From the sequence record MK327943.1: 64,000 nt of DNA; one strand, given 5' to 3'. The notes beneath the pieces were generated by a model. The model did no database searches. It had not been told where the DNA came from and saw only the letters and a program-made list of their open reading frames with translations. Shown one piece after another: positions 972 through 9,327 of the stretch. Source of the DNA: Escherichia phage vB_EcoM_G53. Numbering within the stretch: the stretch's first letter is position 1; the number at the start of each line of letters is the position of its first letter. A program made the position numbers and the translations under genes.

Positions 972-1447
972 CTCAAATTCCTGCATTCGGTAATAAAACG
1001 TTCAACTTCATTATTCTTGGCTTTTATCTTGTCTTTATGTTCTTGTAAACTACTTTTAATAAGATTAATAATGATAGCGACGGTGCCGCCGCCAATGATG
1101 CCACCAATAATACTTACGATAGTAGATGCTAATAAGATAGCAATAATATCAACAAAACCGAAAGAACTCACCTTAGTACTAAAAAACCATACCGACGGTA
1201 CAAATATAATCCATCCTGTTATCCATTGGCACTTATTGAAAAACTTTTCAAGCTCAGCTTGAGTTGTTCGTATTACTTCATCGATAGGTTGATATCCATT
1301 AATGTATCTGTTCACGATAATACCTGCTGGCTGGTCGATTTTAAATTCTTGGCAAATATGTTTCACTAAGTAGGATGGACATCCTGTCCAATCTACTGAA
1401 TAGTATGAAATACCTTCGTTGCCATCGTCTATATTATTGTTAATCAT
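968..1447 (-). CDS. small membrane protein with C-terminal ExFIxECR tail (family member 1)
   Basis: 159 aa; hydrophobic stretches WIIFVPSVWFF and IIAILLASTIVSIIGGIIGGGTVAIIINLI; ends ERFITECRNLR; TAATG overlap with upstream gene. Confidence 0.55.
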   Translation of the reverse strand: MINNNIDDGNEGISYYSVDWTGCPSYLVKHICQEFKIDQPAGIIVNRYINGYQPIDEVIRTTQAELEKFFNKCQWITGWIIFVPSVWFFSTKVSSFGFVDIIAILLASTIVSIIGGIIGGGTVAIIINLIKSSLQEHKDKIKAKNNEVERFITECRNLR

Positions 1448-2133
1448 TACCAGCCTTCCATAGGGAATTCCAGATAAACTTGAGCATTGACACGAATTTC
1501 ATTGGTAATCTTTTTAACTCGGTCTGTATTACGAGATACACGTCCGAACCAACGCCATCCATTACTAATTGCACGAGAACCAGTGTGCCATGTTTGCCAA
1601 TCAAACTGAAGAAGAGTACGGTCTGGAGCTTCCCATTTCTCTAGTTCACCTTTTTCAATTTTTTCGAGGACTTCTTTGTGCCACTGACGATAGATAAGTT
1701 CGCCATCAGGAATCTGACTGAACTCTGCAGTTCCTGTTGCAAAATGAGTAGGACACACATCAGCGTTAACAAGACCAAGAATATGTTCAGAATGGTAACG
1801 AGGGTTGTCATAGTCAGGTTGTCCTGCAGTAATAAAGTGTTGTCCAACTGGAATATCAGGGCGTGGAACATCGTCATGGTGATATCCAGGAATAGCAGGG
1901 TACCAACCAGGCATCAGCATATGAACCCGAGAATCAAATACAACATGTTGATTAGTCCAATCAATTGGGAGATTGGCAATAAAGCTACGAGTGATTGAGC
2001 CACCATTATCCCAAGCAAAACCCAAATCACAATTAAAGAACATTGGTTCATTTTTGATTCGGTCATTTTGTACGTTATGTGCAAAACTACCAACTGCACG
2101 AGCTTGACTATTAAACACTTTAGAACTATTCAT
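1447..2133 (-). CDS. hypothetical protein (228 aa); tentative 2OG-Fe(II) oxygenase-like residue pattern
   Basis: Long ORF with ATG and coupling to flanking genes; HHDD ... WHTGSR ... GRVSR pattern loosely resembles HxD...H...RxS; not verified. Confidence 0.55.
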   Translation of the reverse strand: MNSSKVFNSQARAVGSFAHNVQNDRIKNEPMFFNCDLGFAWDNGGSITRSFIANLPIDWTNQHVVFDSRVHMLMPGWYPAIPGYHHDDVPRPDIPVGQHFITAGQPDYDNPRYHSEHILGLVNADVCPTHFATGTAEFSQIPDGELIYRQWHKEVLEKIEKGELEKWEAPDRTLLQFDWQTWHTGSRAISNGWRWFGRVSRNTDRVKKITNEIRVNAQVYLEFPMEGW

Positions 2134-2134
2134 A

Positions 2135-2440
2135 TTATTTTCCTCGACATTCTTTAATGAAATTTTCTAGATTGGTAGATTCAATAGCTTTTTTACGAGC
2201 TTCTGTGTGTTCTTCTTCGGACAATTTACGTTTATAATTGACCCAGACATTATGGTCGAAACCAGACGTGGCATATAATAACAAAGCTCCAACGAATAGC
2301 AAAAATGGTGATAAAAATATACAACCAGGAACACCATCCATACTGTAAGCCTTTTGTAATACTGCAACAGAAAGAGTTGCGTAAAAAGGTGATGCAAGTA
2401 TTGTTAAAAGGCCAATTCGGTTGGTTTCGCCTAATTTCAT
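2135..2440 (-). CDS. small membrane protein with C-terminal ExFIxECR tail (family member 2)
   Basis: 101 aa; two hydrophobic segments; ends LENFIKECRGK; first gene after PeSL promoter at 2461-2498. Confidence 0.55.
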   Translation of the reverse strand: MKLGETNRIGLLTILASPFYATLSVAVLQKAYSMDGVPGCIFLSPFLLFVGALLLYATSGFDHNVWVNYKRKLSEEEHTEARKKAIESTNLENFIKECRGK

Positions 2441-2460
2441 AATATTCTCCTCATGTTTTA

Positions 2461-2498
2461 ATAGGACTACTATAATATAGCCCTATCAGTTTGTACAC
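2461..2498 (-). promoter_or_regulatory. early promoter with inverted repeat (PeSL-type), weaker -35 (TGTACA)
   Basis: Minus strand TGTACA-N17-TATAGT; inverted repeat ATAGGACT / AGCCCTAT brackets the -10. Confidence 0.45.
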
Positions 2499-2699
2499 TT
2501 ATTTTGACATTTCTTCGATGTCACGACGATACCCATCACGAACTTCACGAAGAGCTTCAAGGCCACACATAGGCTCGATACCAGTAATGTGAACTTGATT
2601 AATCTGATACTCTACATCTTCTAACTGAGCGAAAACATAACGACGTTCTGCTGCACAACCAGGTTTAGCTTTACCGAAACGTTTATTCAAAGTAGTCAT
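2499..2699 (-). CDS. hypothetical protein (66 aa)
   Basis: ORF track 2499..2717; start placed at ATG 2699 preceded by GGAG; lies between two PeSL promoters. Confidence 0.5.
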   Translation of the reverse strand: MTTLNKRFGKAKPGCAAERRYVFAQLEDVEYQINQVHITGIEPMCGLEALREVRDGYRRDIEEMSK

Positions 2700-2728
2700 T
2701 TTTATATCTCCATTCACTCATTTGTTTT

Positions 2729-2766
2729 GATAGGTCTATAGTATCAACAACTACAGACCTTGTAAA
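2729..2766 (-). promoter_or_regulatory. early promoter (PeSL-type)
   Basis: Minus strand TTTACA (2761-2766) - 17 bp - TACTAT (2738-2743); short inverted repeat TGATA / TATCA around the -10. Confidence 0.6.
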
Positions 2767-2779
2767 CTGTTTTGCGAAA

Positions 2780-3736
2780 TTATTTGAAAGGTTTTACCAT
2801 ATGGAAATTTTGTTTGAAACGTTTGACGTAATCGTCGTGTCCTAAGCTTTGGTACATACTTACTACTTTGCTATAATTTTCCCAAGCGAACTCACGGAAC
2901 CATCCTGATGTGATTGATGTACAGACCTTTTCAAGGGCCATCATAAAACTATCACGTGGATGGATTTTAAAGTCGTTAGGAATCTGTGAACGTTCAAGAG
3001 CTAATACACAAGCTTCTTCATATACACCGGCTAATTTAACCATTTCTGGTAATGATTCGAACTTCTCGCGTGATGTCATAACTTCTGAGCCTTCTTTCAT
3101 ATAAAACTTATAAGCAGGCTGGTCAGTTAGTGCAATGGCTTCATGGATAGTATCATGGTCATACGTATAGATGTCATCTTTAAAGAACGCACTTTTAGAA
3201 GTGTCAAGAACTGGGTGAGCATAATTCAAGGTTTCTTTCTGGCGTTTCAGCATAATTTCAGTAAGTTCATCGTTCAGTGTAACACCTTTACCACGAAGAT
3301 ACTGAATATGGTTCATAGTCTTTAAAAAGAATGGATTATTTTTCTTGAAACGATGAGACATCTTAATTGCAAGACATATCTCAGGAGTTGCCCAGTAAAA
3401 CCCGTTCAAACGGTCTTTAGTCAAATTTTTCTTGGCGTATTTTAAAAGGTCATAAGAAGACGTGAAATCTTCAGGAGTGAGTTCACCGACTAGTTCGCGA
3501 ACGTTAGTGAGAGCCGGAACGATGTATGCTTCAAAATGAGTTTCGCGTCCATTATGGAAGCATTTGAAAACTTGGACATCAGGGTTATCTTGGTGAACAT
3601 ATACACCCATCATTTGATTTTTGAATGCATTCCAAGAACCTTGGTCCGCAATAAAGTCCCAATCACTATTTTTAATAGCGCTAGAATCAATAAGACCGTG
3701 ATAGTGAAGTGCACGAGAACCAATAACTAACATCAT
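2780..3736 (-). CDS. hypothetical protein (318 aa); N-terminal GS...DWD is weakly nucleotidyltransferase-like
   Basis: Long ORF, SD GAGGAAAAT upstream of ATG 3736; motif IGSRALHYHG...SDWDF; no secure domain call. Confidence 0.6.
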   Translation of the reverse strand: MMLVIGSRALHYHGLIDSSAIKNSDWDFIADQGSWNAFKNQMMGVYVHQDNPDVQVFKCFHNGRETHFEAYIVPALTNVRELVGELTPEDFTSSYDLLKYAKKNLTKDRLNGFYWATPEICLAIKMSHRFKKNNPFFLKTMNHIQYLRGKGVTLNDELTEIMLKRQKETLNYAHPVLDTSKSAFFKDDIYTYDHDTIHEAIALTDQPAYKFYMKEGSEVMTSREKFESLPEMVKLAGVYEEACVLALERSQIPNDFKIHPRDSFMMALEKVCTSITSGWFREFAWENYSKVVSMYQSLGHDDYVKRFKQNFHMVKPFK

Positions 3737-3764
3737 AATATTTTCCTCGGATTAATTCATTAAC

Positions 3765-4004
3765 TTAAATTTCACGACATGCGATATTATATTCATCCCA
3801 GAGGTCATCATGTGAAGCCTCTACCAATGGAACGATTGTACCGTTTATGTCTTCATTATAAGGGCAAATTGTACAGTGCGCATCTTCGAATCGGATGCCT
3901 TTGTGTTCAGATTTTTTATAACGCATATCGAATATCTTTGCAAACTTTTCACGAGTAATGGTTTTACCAACCACTTTGGTTCCGATACTTTCGTAATAAA
4001 TCAT
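3765..4004 (-). CDS. hypothetical protein (79 aa), Cys/His-containing
   Basis: ORF track 3765..4016; ATG 4004 has GGAG 8 nt upstream while ATG 4016 has no SD; contains HCTICPYNED. Confidence 0.5.
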   Translation of the reverse strand: MIYYESIGTKVVGKTITREKFAKIFDMRYKKSEHKGIRFEDAHCTICPYNEDINGTIVPLVEASHDDLWDEYNIACREI

Positions 4005-4023
4005 TGTGGACTCCATTTGTTTT

Positions 4024-4061
4024 GATAGGACTACTATAACATAGCCCTATCTTGTTGTAAA
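4024..4061 (-). promoter_or_regulatory. early promoter (PeSL-type)
   Basis: Minus strand TTTACA (4056-4061) - 17 bp - TATAGT (4033-4038); inverted repeat ATAGGACT / AGCCCTAT brackets the -10. Confidence 0.65.
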
Positions 4062-4066
4062 CTGTT

Positions 4067-4264
4067 TTAGCAAGAATAACTAGATGATACCCAGCCTTGA
4101 ACAGTGATACTATTGTGGGATAATGAGATCGCGTCCTGGAGATTCAGACCTGCGTTATCTTCAATCCATAATGTAACTTCTTCGCGTTCTTCTGTTGCAA
4201 TTTGGAACAGGTTTTCCAGAGCAGCTACTGCCGTACGTACAGCACAATCTAATTCACGAGACAT
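4067..4264 (-). CDS. small protein, GxWVxSSxxC C-terminal family (paralog 3 of 3, 65 aa)
   Basis: Ends VQGWVSSSYSC; SD TAAGGAAAC overlapping upstream stop; third of three tandem paralogs. Confidence 0.55.
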   Translation of the reverse strand: MSRELDCAVRTAVAALENLFQIATEEREEVTLWIEDNAGLNLQDAISLSHNSITVQGWVSSSYSC

Positions 4265-4273
4265 ATTGTTTCC

Positions 4274-4546
4274 TTAGCAAGTGTGAGAAGATGCGACCCA
4301 ACCACCAGTTTCGAGGCTCAGGTTGTAGTCGTATTGGTAAACGTCAGCCCATTCAGCATAGCCGTTTTTTGTACAACGTTCAAGATCGGCTTTAAGATGT
4401 CCGGGTGAATGATAGGTTCCACCCATACCATAAGCTGGGTACAAGTTGAACGTTGTGTTTTGTTTATCAGCAATTTCTTTGGCAGCCTCAATAGCTGCAT
4501 AGATTTTTGCTACAGCTTCAGCCAGTTCGGTTTGTTCTTTAGACAT
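4274..4546 (-). CDS. small protein, GxWVxSSxxC C-terminal family (paralog 2 of 3, 90 aa)
   Basis: Ends TGGWVASSHTC; shares YGxGGTY with paralog 1; SD TAAGGAAT overlapping upstream stop. Confidence 0.55.
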   Translation of the reverse strand: MSKEQTELAEAVAKIYAAIEAAKEIADKQNTTFNLYPAYGMGGTYHSPGHLKADLERCTKNGYAEWADVYQYDYNLSLETGGWVASSHTC

Positions 4547-4555
4547 AACGATTCC

Positions 4556-4861
4556 TTAGCACAACGCAGAAGACGAAACCCAAGCACCTTCAGTAATAAC
4601 GTAACCATTACCTTCACGCTTAACATCGCCACCATTATTTTCAATTTCATCTTTCATCCACTGGGATACGATTTCACCCTTAGGATAATAAGTACGACCG
4701 CTACCATAATCACCTACAGAAAATGATACGGCATATTGGTCTGCGATCTTTGTTGCTTCTTCTTCGATACGTTCAGCTTGATTCAGAAGTTTATAAATTG
4801 CATCTGAAGCGGATTTGGCATCATTAAACTCTGGTACTTTAATTTCAATAATCTTACTCAT
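4556..4861 (-). CDS. small protein, GxWVxSSxxC C-terminal family (paralog 1 of 3, 101 aa)
   Basis: Ends EGAWVSSSALC; ATGA start/stop overlap with upstream membrane protein gene. Confidence 0.55.
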   Translation of the reverse strand: MSKIIEIKVPEFNDAKSASDAIYKLLNQAERIEEEATKIADQYAVSFSVGDYGSGRTYYPKGEIVSQWMKDEIENNGGDVKREGNGYVITEGAWVSSSALC

Positions 4862-5217
4862 TTTCTACATTCCTTAATAAAGTTTTCGATTGTTTCATTT
4901 TCACGTTTAGCTAGAAGTTCATTATAACTAATCATTTGAGAAGCGTAAATCTTTTTATTTTTCTTGTTATGGTTTATAAAATCGTAGTAAAAATAGACTA
5001 CAGTACAAAATGATGCGATGGATGCAAAGGCTTGGGTATACCGTAAGTCCTGCCATTGGTCTGTGAATCCACCAGTGTTCCCTATAAATCCTAACACAAC
5101 GCCGTCAATAAGAAATCCAACTAATCCAAAGGCAAATCCCATGCCAATACTCATAATAAAAATTAGAATGTTCTCACCAAGAGAAGGCCATACGGTTAAG
5201 AGTTGAGGCTTTTGCAT
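4858..5217 (-). CDS. small membrane protein with C-terminal ExFIxECR tail (family member 3)
   Basis: 119 aa; hydrophobic segments; ends IENFIKECRK; SD TTAAGGAAATAAG upstream. Confidence 0.55.
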   Translation of the reverse strand: MQKPQLLTVWPSLGENILIFIMSIGMGFAFGLVGFLIDGVVLGFIGNTGGFTDQWQDLRYTQAFASIASFCTVVYFYYDFINHNKKNKKIYASQMISYNELLAKRENETIENFIKECRK

Positions 5218-5591
5218 CTTATTTCCTTAACGAATTCCATAGCTTCTTCATATTCATACTTTTTAACAGCTTCATCATACTGAGCTTGGGCTTTTGCGCA
5301 CTGAACTTTCCATTCTCTTAATCGGGCTCTGTGATGACGGCCTTGGTGCCAATATCCTACCCAATTAATAGGCATTAATAAAAACGGTACAATAAGTGGT
5401 GCGACGAACATTAATGAAAATGCTGCATCAGACGATATAACTTCACTAGAATCTAAAACAGCTCCTATAATCATAAAGATTAAAAATGCTAAAGCTAAAA
5501 TAGGGCCAAATAATACTTCATTTGGGATTAATTTACGCTTGTATTCATACGCCCAGGGCTTACTTGGCATGTATAGGGTTGGCTTTGACAT
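5196..5591 (-). CDS. small membrane protein with ExFVKEIRC-type C-terminal tail (family member 4)
   Basis: ORF track 5196..5621; start moved to ATG 5591 (MSKPTLYM) just after the conserved tail codons of the upstream gene; hydrophobic segments. Confidence 0.5.
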   Translation of the reverse strand: MSKPTLYMPSKPWAYEYKRKLIPNEVLFGPILALAFLIFMIIGAVLDSSEVISSDAAFSLMFVAPLIVPFLLMPINWVGYWHQGRHHRARLREWKVQCAKAQAQYDEAVKKYEYEEAMEFVKEIRCKSLNS

Positions 5592-6162
5592 ATTCTCTAC
5601 ATTCCATAATAAATTGCTCAAGGATTAAATTGTTAGTGAAATTAGGACTAACAACCATAGTTTCATAAAGCGCATCAATAGCACTTAAAGCATCAACTCT
5701 TTTAAGCAAAGGCTTGCCTTCATACATAGTTTCAGAATCGATGATTAACGTAAAGTAATATTTTTTATTATCGACTAGAACTTCTGTATCGATATAAAAC
5801 ATATTAGACCTCAGAAGCTTATCTCTAAAGCCATAATAATCTTCAGAGCGTTCGCTGATATATTCCCATTCAGTGTTTAAACAACAAACAGACCACGTAG
5901 GAGCAACGAAATCAGTGAATCTAATATCATGGTCTGCAACTAGTTTAGCAATAGCTCCGATATCATGAATCATAATACCTGGGGCTAATAAAGATTTTCT
6001 GCTATGGCTAGCCGTTTTCTCGGTGGTCTCATAAGAAGACGACCAGTACCATTTACGTCCGGTTGCAACATATCGTAATGAATCAACTAAAGACGTAGGT
6101 GGATTTACCTTATCTCGGAACTCTTCGAACATTGAGTCAATATCATTATTTTGGTTTCGCAT
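5560..6162 (-). CDS. hypothetical protein (200 aa) with ExFIMECR motif near C-terminus
   Basis: ORF track 5560..6183 begins at TTG; ATG 6162 has a strong AAGGAG SD; contains LEQFIMECREY. Confidence 0.55.
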   Translation of the reverse strand: MRNQNNDIDSMFEEFRDKVNPPTSLVDSLRYVATGRKWYWSSSYETTEKTASHSRKSLLAPGIMIHDIGAIAKLVADHDIRFTDFVAPTWSVCCLNTEWEYISERSEDYYGFRDKLLRSNMFYIDTEVLVDNKKYYFTLIIDSETMYEGKPLLKRVDALSAIDALYETMVVSPNFTNNLILEQFIMECREYVKANPIHAK

Positions 6163-6181
6163 GTTAACTCCTTTATTATCC

Positions 6182-6203
6182 AAAAGGAGGACCGGAGTCC
6201 TCC
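6182..6203 (-). terminator. hairpin plus short U-run (weak terminator or attenuator) between operon genes
   Basis: GGAGGAC-CGGA-GTCCTCC perfect 7-bp stem followed by UUUU on the minus strand; sits in the leader of the next gene. Confidence 0.45.
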
Positions 6204-6211
6204 GTATTATT

Positions 6212-6805
6212 TTATTTCAAAGAGTTAATATATTCTTGTACATCAGCAGAAGTGGTTTCGACGCCGGCTGGAGTGCCATTGAACGTTTCAACACGAGTCA
6301 GAGTGTCTTCGATATCAACCTTAGTCAGTGCAGCTATTTCAATTACATCATCGGCCGTAGAGATACCAAGGGCATTAGCTGCTCGAGTTTCACGAATGTA
6401 TTCGAGTTTGATTGCCAGATTCTGACGAGCATCGTCAAGTTCAACCACCTTACGAGCAATTTCAATTCGCATAGCGGCATACCCGTCAGCTTTTGTATTA
6501 AGTTGTTCGGCAGTTCGACGATACAGAAGACCAAGCTTAGCATGCATAGTAACATCTTGTCCTTCAGCCAGGAGCTTACGAATTTCACGTTCCTTAGAAG
6601 CGGCTTGCTTGTTCTTTTCATTAACAAGTTCGCGAATACGTTTTTCTTCATTAATAGATTTAACAGAAGCCGTTTTTAGTTCTTTGATTTGGGTAATCAA
6701 CTTATCTGCAGCTGCGTTATACTGTTCTTCGACAGTCAGATTTTTAGCCATAGCAGTACCCAGTTTAGTGCGGATGAATTCAACAAGTTTCTTCAGTGTG
6801 TTCAT
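6212..6805 (-). CDS. coiled-coil protein (197 aa); weak resemblance to PspA/IM30-type proteins, unverified
   Basis: ORF track 6212..6820 begins at TTG; ATG 6805 preceded by AAGGT; Lys/Glu/Ala/Arg-rich heptad-like sequence; first gene after promoter at 6841-6875. Confidence 0.55.
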
Positions 6806-6840
6806 ATTATTACCTTTCAATTGGTGGTTTATTATCCAAT

Positions 6841-6875
6841 GAGAGCATTATACTCTGCTCTCAAGAGTTTGTAAA
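6841..6875 (-). promoter_or_regulatory. early promoter (PeSL-type) with consensus -10
   Basis: Minus strand TTTACA (6870-6875) - 17 bp - TATAAT (6847-6852); inverted repeat GAGAGC / GCTCTC brackets the -10. Confidence 0.65.
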
Positions 6876-7103
6876 TTATTTTTTAATCAAATTGACATAA
6901 AACTTGGCGTCTTCTGGGTGCATGCCTTCGCAGTATTCTTCAACCATGAACTTCTTAACAGCTTCATAAGGACCACTCAGATTAAGCTCAGTTGTCCAGA
7001 ACTTGGAATCTTGGGCTGAATCGATATGAACTTCAGGGTGACGGTTGCGAATAACTTCTTCTGTGTATTCATAATCAACGACATCAATACTAACTTTAGC
7101 CAT
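6876..7103 (-). CDS. hypothetical protein (75 aa)
   Basis: ATG 7103 preceded by GAGAGGAAAA; single-gene cassette between two PeSL promoters. Confidence 0.5.
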   Translation of the reverse strand: MAKVSIDVVDYEYTEEVIRNRHPEVHIDSAQDSKFWTTELNLSGPYEAVKKFMVEEYCEGMHPEDAKFYVNLIKK

Positions 7104-7126
7104 TTTGTTTTCCTCTCATTTGATTT

Positions 7127-9170: not shown

Positions 9171-9247
<77 letters not shown>

Positions 9248-9253
9248 AATATA

Positions 9254-9327
9254 TGACCCAGACCAGATTCGAACTGGTAACCTTTCCCTTATGAGGGGAC
9301 TGCTGCTAACCATTGAGCTACAGGGCC
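9254..9327 (-). tRNA. tRNA with CAU anticodon (Met, or Ile with modified C34 as in the T4 tRNA-Ile)
   Basis: Manual fold: acceptor GGCCCTG/CTGGGTC (one mismatch), anticodon loop CTCATAA, T-arm ACCAG-TTCGAAT-CTGGT; D-arm slightly atypical. Confidence 0.65.

Follow-up and report, generated by a model that had tools for sequence, protein, structure and literature searches.

The 64,000-nucleotide stretch of Escherichia phage vB_EcoM_G53 analysed here (MK327943.1; the window) encodes a 318-aa protein that is, by its predicted fold, a nucleotidyltransferase (NTase) of the polymerase-beta superfamily. The conserved genomic partner of its gene is a set of tandem genes, lying upstream, for small acidic proteins with a C-terminal W-x-S-S-x-x-C tail. 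This conserved module of enzyme and Cys-tailed small proteins appears to be undescribed so far. We favour, at a probability of about 0.45, the reading that a virus-restricted, catalytically competent NTase expressed early in infection acts together with the Cys-tailed proteins, whose tail would dock on the enzyme as a substrate or an adaptor. An initial annotation of this stretch had pointed to the 318-aa gene and a neighbouring 79-aa gene as a two-gene cassette behind a promoter; both open reading frames (ORFs) and the motifs quoted for them are found on the minus strand exactly where they had been placed (Table 1).

The 318-aa protein begins MMLVIGSRALHYHGLIDSSAIKNSDWDF, and a GAGG ribosome-binding site lies 8 nt upstream of its start codon. 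It matches only DUF7277 (aa 2-101) and DUF7275 (aa 120-305) in Pfam, and PHROG 2141, to which it also belongs, carries no functional annotation. The AlphaFold2 model made with 42 homologues as input has a predicted local distance difference test score of 91.7 and a predicted template-modelling score of 0.86. In this model, strand 2-5 is followed by helix 6-12, strand 26-31, helix 32-41 and strands 45-47, 54-61 and 64-73, which gives the alpha/beta core of an NTase. The hG[GS] motif of the superfamily is found as I-G6-S7 after strand 2-5, where it opens helix 6-12, and the [DE]h[DE]h motif as D25-W-D27-F at strand 26-31, with the later carboxylate, E69, within strand 64-73. The initial annotation had seen a loose resemblance to an NTase in the N-terminus, had asked for the catalytic acidic triad in a structural model, and had named a prediction lacking this fold as the outcome that would overturn the claim. 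The prediction contains the fold, with D25, D27 and E69 correctly placed as the putative triad together with G6-S7, and the claim stands. A homologue is already called 'nucleotidyltransferase' in one GenBank record, so that recognition of the fold is no novelty. The names DUF7275 and DUF7277, the RB69 ORF names and the PHROG numbers are not mentioned in the literature searched.

G6, S7, A9, D25, D27 and E69 are invariant in the alignment of the 42 homologues. The first five remain so when homologues from actinophages, down to 28% identity, are added; an equivalent of E69 is not confidently aligned in these shortened proteins. Invariance of the metal- and nucleoside triphosphate (NTP)-binding residues across about 70% sequence divergence argues for retained catalysis, and the 318-aa protein is probably a conserved, active NTase. 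Structural comparison of the model gave MenT1 (10.1, 147 residues aligned), followed by ANT(2'')-Ia (8.7), TglT/MenT3 (8.6), a fungal NTase-like protein (7.7), MenT4 (7.7), JHP933 (7.6), TM1012 (7.5), LnuA (7.2) and the Megavirus poly(A) polymerase (6.7). In a Pfam search of all 42 members at E-values up to 10, no NTase family, AbiEii included, was found, the lone match being that of one member to Poly_A_pol_cat (E 0.11). Profile searches of NCBIfam, PADLOC and PDB with the 318-aa protein gave nothing meaningful, and the earlier suggestion that the enzyme might interfere with immune signalling finds no support in PADLOC or NCBIfam.

The C-terminal domain, DUF7275, is helical, and about 60 of its residues are extremely conserved across hosts. 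K125, H128, K139, H194, D195, H198, E240, E241, E248, R249 and S274 are invariant in both alignments that include actinophage proteins; K225 is invariant in one of them and nearly so in the other. Among the 42 homologues, which come from phages of Gram-negative hosts, C243, C272 and R281 are also invariant and W279 nearly so. The last 140 or so residues of the protein have no structural match. The arrangement H128...H194-D195...H198...E240 brought to mind an HD phosphohydrolase, which accompanies an NTase domain in the CCA-adding enzyme, GlnD and SpoT; this candidate was rejected, since a separate model of aa 108-318 shows no HD fold.

Genes for three acidic proteins of 65, 90 and 101 aa lie directly upstream of the promoter early stem-loop (PeSL) element that precedes the cassette, and they are the only 3 of the 400 ORFs in the window with a W-x-S-S-x-x-C tail. 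The initial annotation, right in singling out the 318-aa enzyme, omitted these genes from its set although they are the real conserved partners. When the ORFs of 80 diverse IMG/VR loci carrying an enzyme homologue were clustered, one recurrent neighbour family emerged, consisting of proteins of 60-140 aa encoded on the same strand upstream of the enzyme and with W-x-S-S-x-x-C as their last residues; which other neighbours are present varies widely between loci. In these loci 214 of 225 tail-bearing ORFs fall within the 3-kb same-strand zone upstream of the enzyme, which makes up 9.2% of the sequence searched (nominal binomial P of 1e-204, the loci not being independent). A tail gene accompanies 13 of 13 enzyme clusters at 58% identity, 25 of 27 at 70% and 47 of 49 at 85%. 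The same arrangement, with two to five tail copies, is found in Acinetobacter phage KARL-1, Pseudomonas phage M5.1, Edwardsiella phage PEi20 and Dhakavirus MN04, and the linkage is kept not only in Acinetobacter and Pseudomonas phages but also in contigs of about 350 kb, the size of a jumbo phage. Conversely, for four divergent tail proteins retrieved by a profile search, every contig has a DUF7277+DUF7275 gene immediately downstream or one gene further. Neither the enzyme nor a tail gene occurs in about 66 kb of T4 that was scanned, including the region syntenic to the cassette.

The tail family comprises PHROG 899 and PHROG 4882, without fusions, and falls into 67 clusters at 50% identity in the 80 loci. 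Its members share an N-terminal helix, an 'IADE-G--F' segment, often 'YGMGGTYYP', and the invariant tail. Their median isoelectric point (pI) is 4.4 and that of the enzyme is 5.9, values that suit a protein partner of the enzyme better than a nucleic-acid substrate. Searches of the family against Pfam, PDB and PADLOC gave no match beyond coiled-coil noise, a match to a Nif11-domain protein (E = 2.7) not being significant. In one subgroup (e.g. 6764-7117 of locus L012 and 1642-1884 of locus L008) the motif occurs twice, as an internal W-L-N-S-S-C-Y-G-E-E and a terminal W-Y-P-S-S-C without a spacer before the cysteine, and for this reason the minimal conserved element seems to be W-x-x-S-S-(0-3 residues)-C. 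An apparent natural fusion of tail and enzyme (P0278, 377 aa; 80-352 of locus L106) was discarded, as a TAG stop lies between them on the contig and the database gene call had read through it. The tail protein of this locus ends SSGGPACW, so that the cysteine is not the last residue in this variant.

Absence of the tail genes coincides with changes in the enzyme. The sole multi-locus clade without upstream tail genes (L051, L052, L055 and L078), which has different upstream genes, carries W279R, D193Q/E, E282T and Y209F at near-invariant positions. Actinophage homologues, likewise without tail genes, lack C243 and C272 and mostly W279. This covariation is suggestive of a direct relationship between tail and enzyme. 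In actinophages the enzyme gene is followed by a translationally coupled gene for a different, conserved protein of about 100 aa (3630-3968 of L004, Beuffert gp204; 3600-3893 of L005, Engineer gp17; 3609-3941 of L006, prophiGD54-2 gp85). These three proteins are alike by eye (...GY-DSY/SW...W/F...V-V...) and have no Pfam match; they are a possible alternative partner in place of the Cys-tailed proteins.

The enzyme family is large: at 50% identity it forms about 1,600 clusters, and almost all are stand-alone proteins of about 300 aa. Its members are found in T-even relatives, in Acinetobacter, Aeromonas, Pseudomonas and Vibrio phages, in contigs of about 350 kb, in actinophages and in giant viruses. 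In actinophages (of Streptomyces, Gordonia and Mycobacterium), the homologues have 251-263 aa and 28-33% identity, and their shortened N-terminus keeps (I/V)GSxA...DxD. A one-per-species set of bacterial genomes yielded only five contigs, all from metagenome bins, in a search with exact peptide patterns that detect close relatives only. Judged from these sequence searches, the family is virus-restricted. Two giant-virus proteins among the matches in BFVD, A0A3G5AJ90 (Sylvanvirus, 508 aa) and A0A3G5AE53 (Satyrvirus, 571 aa), have the same fold and DUF7275 plus extra sequence; DUF7275 proteins of the same fold in giant viruses point to transfer between phages and giant viruses or to a host-independent function.

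On the favoured reading, the enzyme would be transcribed early from the PeSL promoter, G6-S7 would hold the phosphates of an NTP and D25, D27 and E69 the magnesium ions, while the invariant lysine, histidine, aspartate, glutamate and arginine residues of DUF7275, together with the cysteines conserved in homologues from Gram-negative phages, would form the acceptor site. A hydroxyl bound by DUF7275 would then receive a nucleoside monophosphate from the NTP. In most tail proteins the last residue is a free cysteine, and the invariant tail might dock in the conserved cleft between DUF7275 and the NTase domain, either to be nucleotidylated on a tail serine, making the two an enzyme-substrate pair, or to guide the enzyme as an adaptor. 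Differing specificities against host targets, in take-over of the host or in counter-defence, could come from the variable acidic bodies of the small proteins. A more specific and doubtful version is that the enzyme covalently modifies the tail by O-nucleotidylation of serine, possibly as an activation that leads on to elimination and closure of a thioether ring on the terminal cysteine, a chemistry known from lanthionine and AviCys. One NTase would then mature a diversifying set of small effectors, in a widespread phage system not recognized before.

Several points weigh against this reading. Contact between tail and enzyme is something that we infer from gene linkage, its sole basis, and an operon-like linkage could also arise because the genes are regulated together, or because the small proteins regulate the enzyme instead of being its substrates. 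The covariation described above amounts essentially to two independent lineages. Since actinophage and giant-virus homologues lack recognizable tail proteins, the core chemistry cannot depend on these proteins. Moreover, the closest structural relatives use tRNA or small molecules, not proteins.

An unlikely alternative is that the enzyme is a MenT/AbiEii-like RNA NTase, which would add nucleotides to the 3' ends of host tRNAs, or repair or block these ends, and in this way stop translation or safeguard it at an early stage of infection, with the small proteins as its inhibitors or regulators. The GSxAL...DxD of the 318-aa protein resembles motif I of AbiEii. A pair of tRNA genes, tRNA-Arg(TCT) and tRNA-Met(CAT), lies on the minus strand 5.4 kb from the cassette (9171-9327) and is syntenic in T-even-type loci, and some unrelated loci have tRNA arrays or genes of RNA repair (RlaP, RNA ligase, metallophosphatase) nearby. 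MenT1, like the phage enzyme, has a small protein encoded upstream: MenA1, a 68-aa antitoxin, neutralizes MenT1 by blocking its active site (PMC10435456). However, none of the 42 members matches AbiEii or another known NTase family in Pfam in the search described above, and the multiple divergent paralogous 'antitoxins' of the phages carry an invariant C-terminal peptide that is foreign to MenA and AbiEi; an antitoxin would be of no obvious use to a lytic phage. The mildly acidic enzyme, compared with the electropositive tRNA-binding surface of MenT1, also weighs somewhat against such a function, as does the finding that tRNA genes are not generally linked to it. The apparent linkage proved to be mostly T-even synteny: upstream tRNA genes occur in 28 of 29 T-even-like loci (L011-L039), and any tRNA gene in 4 of the 51 others.

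Somewhat less probable again is a transferase of the ANT(2'')/Lnu type, which would nucleotidylate a hydroxyl on a signalling nucleotide, a metabolite or an anti-phage compound resembling an antibiotic; its linkage to the tail genes would then be regulatory or only syntenic. Such enzymes have the same architecture of an NTase lobe and a helical substrate lobe, and the spacing from D25/D27 to E69 is close to that from D44/D46 to D86 in ANT(2''). The occurrence of homologues without tail proteins in Streptomyces and Gordonia phages and in giant viruses agrees with a function of this kind. Against it, neither the aminoglycoside nor the lincosamide NTase families are matched in sequence, and it would leave unexplained both the near-universal, directional linkage to the tail genes and the extreme conservation of about 60 DUF7275 residues across hosts. 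Finally, the protein might be a non-catalytic scaffold with an NTase-like fold, its linkage being a by-product of PeSL-mediated shuffling in hyperplastic regions. Two PeSLs do bound the cassette, and such elements are reported in modular shuffling; the invariance of the metal- and NTP-binding residues, together with the persistence of the linkage in Acinetobacter and Pseudomonas phages and in the contigs of about 350 kb, as judged by their gene content, makes this explanation very improbable.

The 79-aa protein, regarded in the initial annotation as a Cys/His protein and the second member of the cassette, is a lineage-specific neighbour that is co-transcribed with the enzyme, and is neither a conserved partner nor a conserved metal-binding protein. 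Its gene starts at the ATG at 4004, preceded by GGAG, as annotated in related genomes; the longest ORF starts at the ATG at 4016 and encodes 83 aa. Only C44, P48, P59 and a few hydrophobic residues are invariant in eight homologues. Zinc binding was thus rejected: a four-ligand set is absent, C44 is the only invariant residue among the cysteines and histidines, C47 is replaced by D and H43 by Y or F, and the C-terminal cysteine varies. Pfam gave no match. A homologue is found in 242 phage records, as against 733 with the enzyme. The two genes adjoin in Mosigvirus and Kanagawavirus, and another ORF lies between them in Dhakavirus (MN04). No NTase gene lies beside the homologue in the loci examined of Serratia phage Muldoon (5 kb, next to tk) and Stenotrophomonas phage BUCTxx100. 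For these reasons, and because the protein is unrelated to the tail family (hhalign probability 0.5%), an obligate partnership with the enzyme was rejected.

The window belongs to a Mosigvirus, an RB69-like T-even phage. Bases 2400-4300 share 99.6% identity with Escherichia phage vB_EcoM_MM02 and 97-99% with many further genomes of Mosigvirus. RB69ORF134c and RB69ORF135c are annotated genes in about 150 Mosigvirus genomes. This part of the window has genes on the minus strand only. In an annotated relative, read along the plus strand, lysozyme e and nudE come first; several small genes follow, then those for the 318-aa and 79-aa proteins, and three more small genes precede e.3 to e.6. T4 lacks the segment between nudE and e.2/e.3, which indicates that the genes of interest lie in a hyperplastic insertion. 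The promoter proposed in the initial annotation was borne out: upstream of the cassette, TTTACA-17-TATAGT (4061..4033), with a preceding TG, deviates by one mismatch from the T4-group PeSL consensus TTTACW-N17-TAYWAT (PMC4122927), and an 11-bp stem-loop (4024-4051; -16 kcal/mol; z = -5.25 against shuffled sequences) lies within it. The stem-loop of the element downstream has -16.4 kcal/mol and z = -4.59, and the box AACAGTTTACAA is identical in both. With a PeSL on either side, the genes for the 79-aa and 318-aa proteins make up an early cassette. PeSLs, which are reported to mediate modular shuffling (PMC4122927), account for the movement of the cassette and its early expression, not for the function of the enzyme.

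Table 1. Positions in the window of the enzyme gene, its domains, the neighbouring genes and the flanking PeSL elements
Feature	Position	Strand	Remark
Downstream PeSL, closing the cassette	2722..2779	-	promoter 2766..2738 TTTACA-17-TACTAT; stem-loop 2732-2760
Gene for the 318-aa predicted nucleotidyltransferase (RB69ORF134c homologue; PHROG 2141)	2780..3736	-	
C-terminal helical domain DUF7275, aa 120-305	2822..3379	-	
N-terminal predicted catalytic NTase domain, aa 2-101	3434..3733	-	from motif conservation and order of secondary structure
Codons of putative catalytic residues	G6-S7 3716-3721; D25 3662-3664; D27 3656-3658; E69 3530-3532	-	in the 318-aa gene
Gene for the 79-aa protein (RB69ORF135c; PHROG 3723)	3765..4004	-	contains HCTICPYNED
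Upstream PeSL, early promoter with embedded stem-loop	4017..4070	-	-35 4056-4061; -10 4033-4038
Gene for the 65-aa acidic protein (RB69ORF136c; PHROG 4882)	4067..4264	-	ends GWVSSSYSC
Gene for the 90-aa acidic protein (RB69ORF137c; PHROG 899)	4274..4546	-	ends GWVASSHTC
Gene for the 101-aa acidic protein (PHROG 899)	4556..4861	-	ends AWVSSSALC

Other neighbours of the enzyme recur in some clades or loci only. Metallophosphatase, RlaP, Macro-domain and Nampt proteins, phosphoribosyl pyrophosphate synthetase, SLOG-like proteins and RNA or DNA ligases were rejected as general partners on this ground. Certain unrelated phages encode, downstream of the enzyme, another NTase, of the RlaP RNA-repair family (PF10127), a metallophosphatase or a Macro-domain protein (5524-6489 of L102; 5445-7137 of L105; 5388-5861 of L099; positions +2 to +4 in L047 and related loci). 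Downstream of the enzyme in the window, a 228-aa protein (1447-2133, minus strand; PHROG 1843, no Pfam match) is encoded; it usually lies one to three genes away and is found in 23 of the 80 loci, from T-even relatives and Aeromonas-type phages. Five ORFs of the hyperplastic region, all on the minus strand (968-1447, 2135-2440, 4858-5217, 5196-5621 and 5560-6183, the last two overlapping), share at or near the C-terminus a motif of approximately (E/N)F(I/V)(K/T/M)ECR, with the endings ERFITECRNLR, ENFIKECRGK, ENFIKECRK, EFVKEIRCKSLNS and EQFIMECREY.... Several of them resemble small membrane proteins, and the ending also occurs in homologues from other T-even loci (L033).

The analysis turns an anonymous hypothetical protein, from a large but uncharacterized family known as two Pfam DUFs only, into a concrete and testable hypothesis of an enzyme and its partners, in which the enzyme is almost always preceded by one to five fast-evolving tail proteins. 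If the tails are substrates or adaptors, the module would be a new phage system for modification or targeting of proteins at the start of infection, the stage of take-over and anti-defence. If the enzyme instead acted on tRNA as MenT does, it would represent bacterial toxin chemistry carried by a phage with a new class of regulator.

As for known systems, the two flanking elements share the promoter, the stem-loop and the hyperplastic setting with the PeSL mobile regulatory cassettes of T4-type phages, and show nothing unusual (PMC2839356; PMC4122927). With MenT1, MenT3 (TglT), MenT4 and AbiEii (DUF1814), the phage enzyme shares an N-terminal polymerase-beta lobe with G[GS]xA...DxD and a helical C-terminal lobe with a conserved lysine, and the small-protein gene upstream recalls MenA1/MenT1. 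It differs in having no membership at the sequence level, about 140 additional C-terminal residues, an acidic rather than basic character, and a place among the early genes of a lytic phage; its partners are multiple paralogous acidic proteins with the W-x-S-S-x-x-C tail, not antitoxins of the AbiEi or MenA type. The DUF1814 profile (PF08843), including motif IV, is not matched by the 318-aa protein or its homologues (42 members). A candidate lysine of motif III, K125, is present, and at the spacing of K137 to D152 in MenT1 (PMC10435456) the phage protein has an invariant K139-T140 and no aspartate, a comparison of sequence spacing only. ANT(2'')-Ia (AadB) and LnuA/LinB are not related to it in sequence, and unlike them the phage enzyme is phage-restricted, has no resistance context and possesses a much larger, ultra-conserved C-terminal domain. 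In the HEPN-MNT type VII toxin-antitoxin system, the NTase MntA oligo-AMPylates its neighbour HepT. No homology of the enzyme or the tail proteins to HEPN-MNT components was detected, no search having been aimed at them. HepT is a HEPN RNase and is modified on a tyrosine, whereas the phage enzyme has small acidic proteins as partners, with Ser and Cys in their tail and a modification that is hypothetical; the HEPN-MNT system nevertheless provides a precedent for a minimal polymerase-beta NTase that modifies an adjacently encoded protein, the logic proposed here for the tail proteins.

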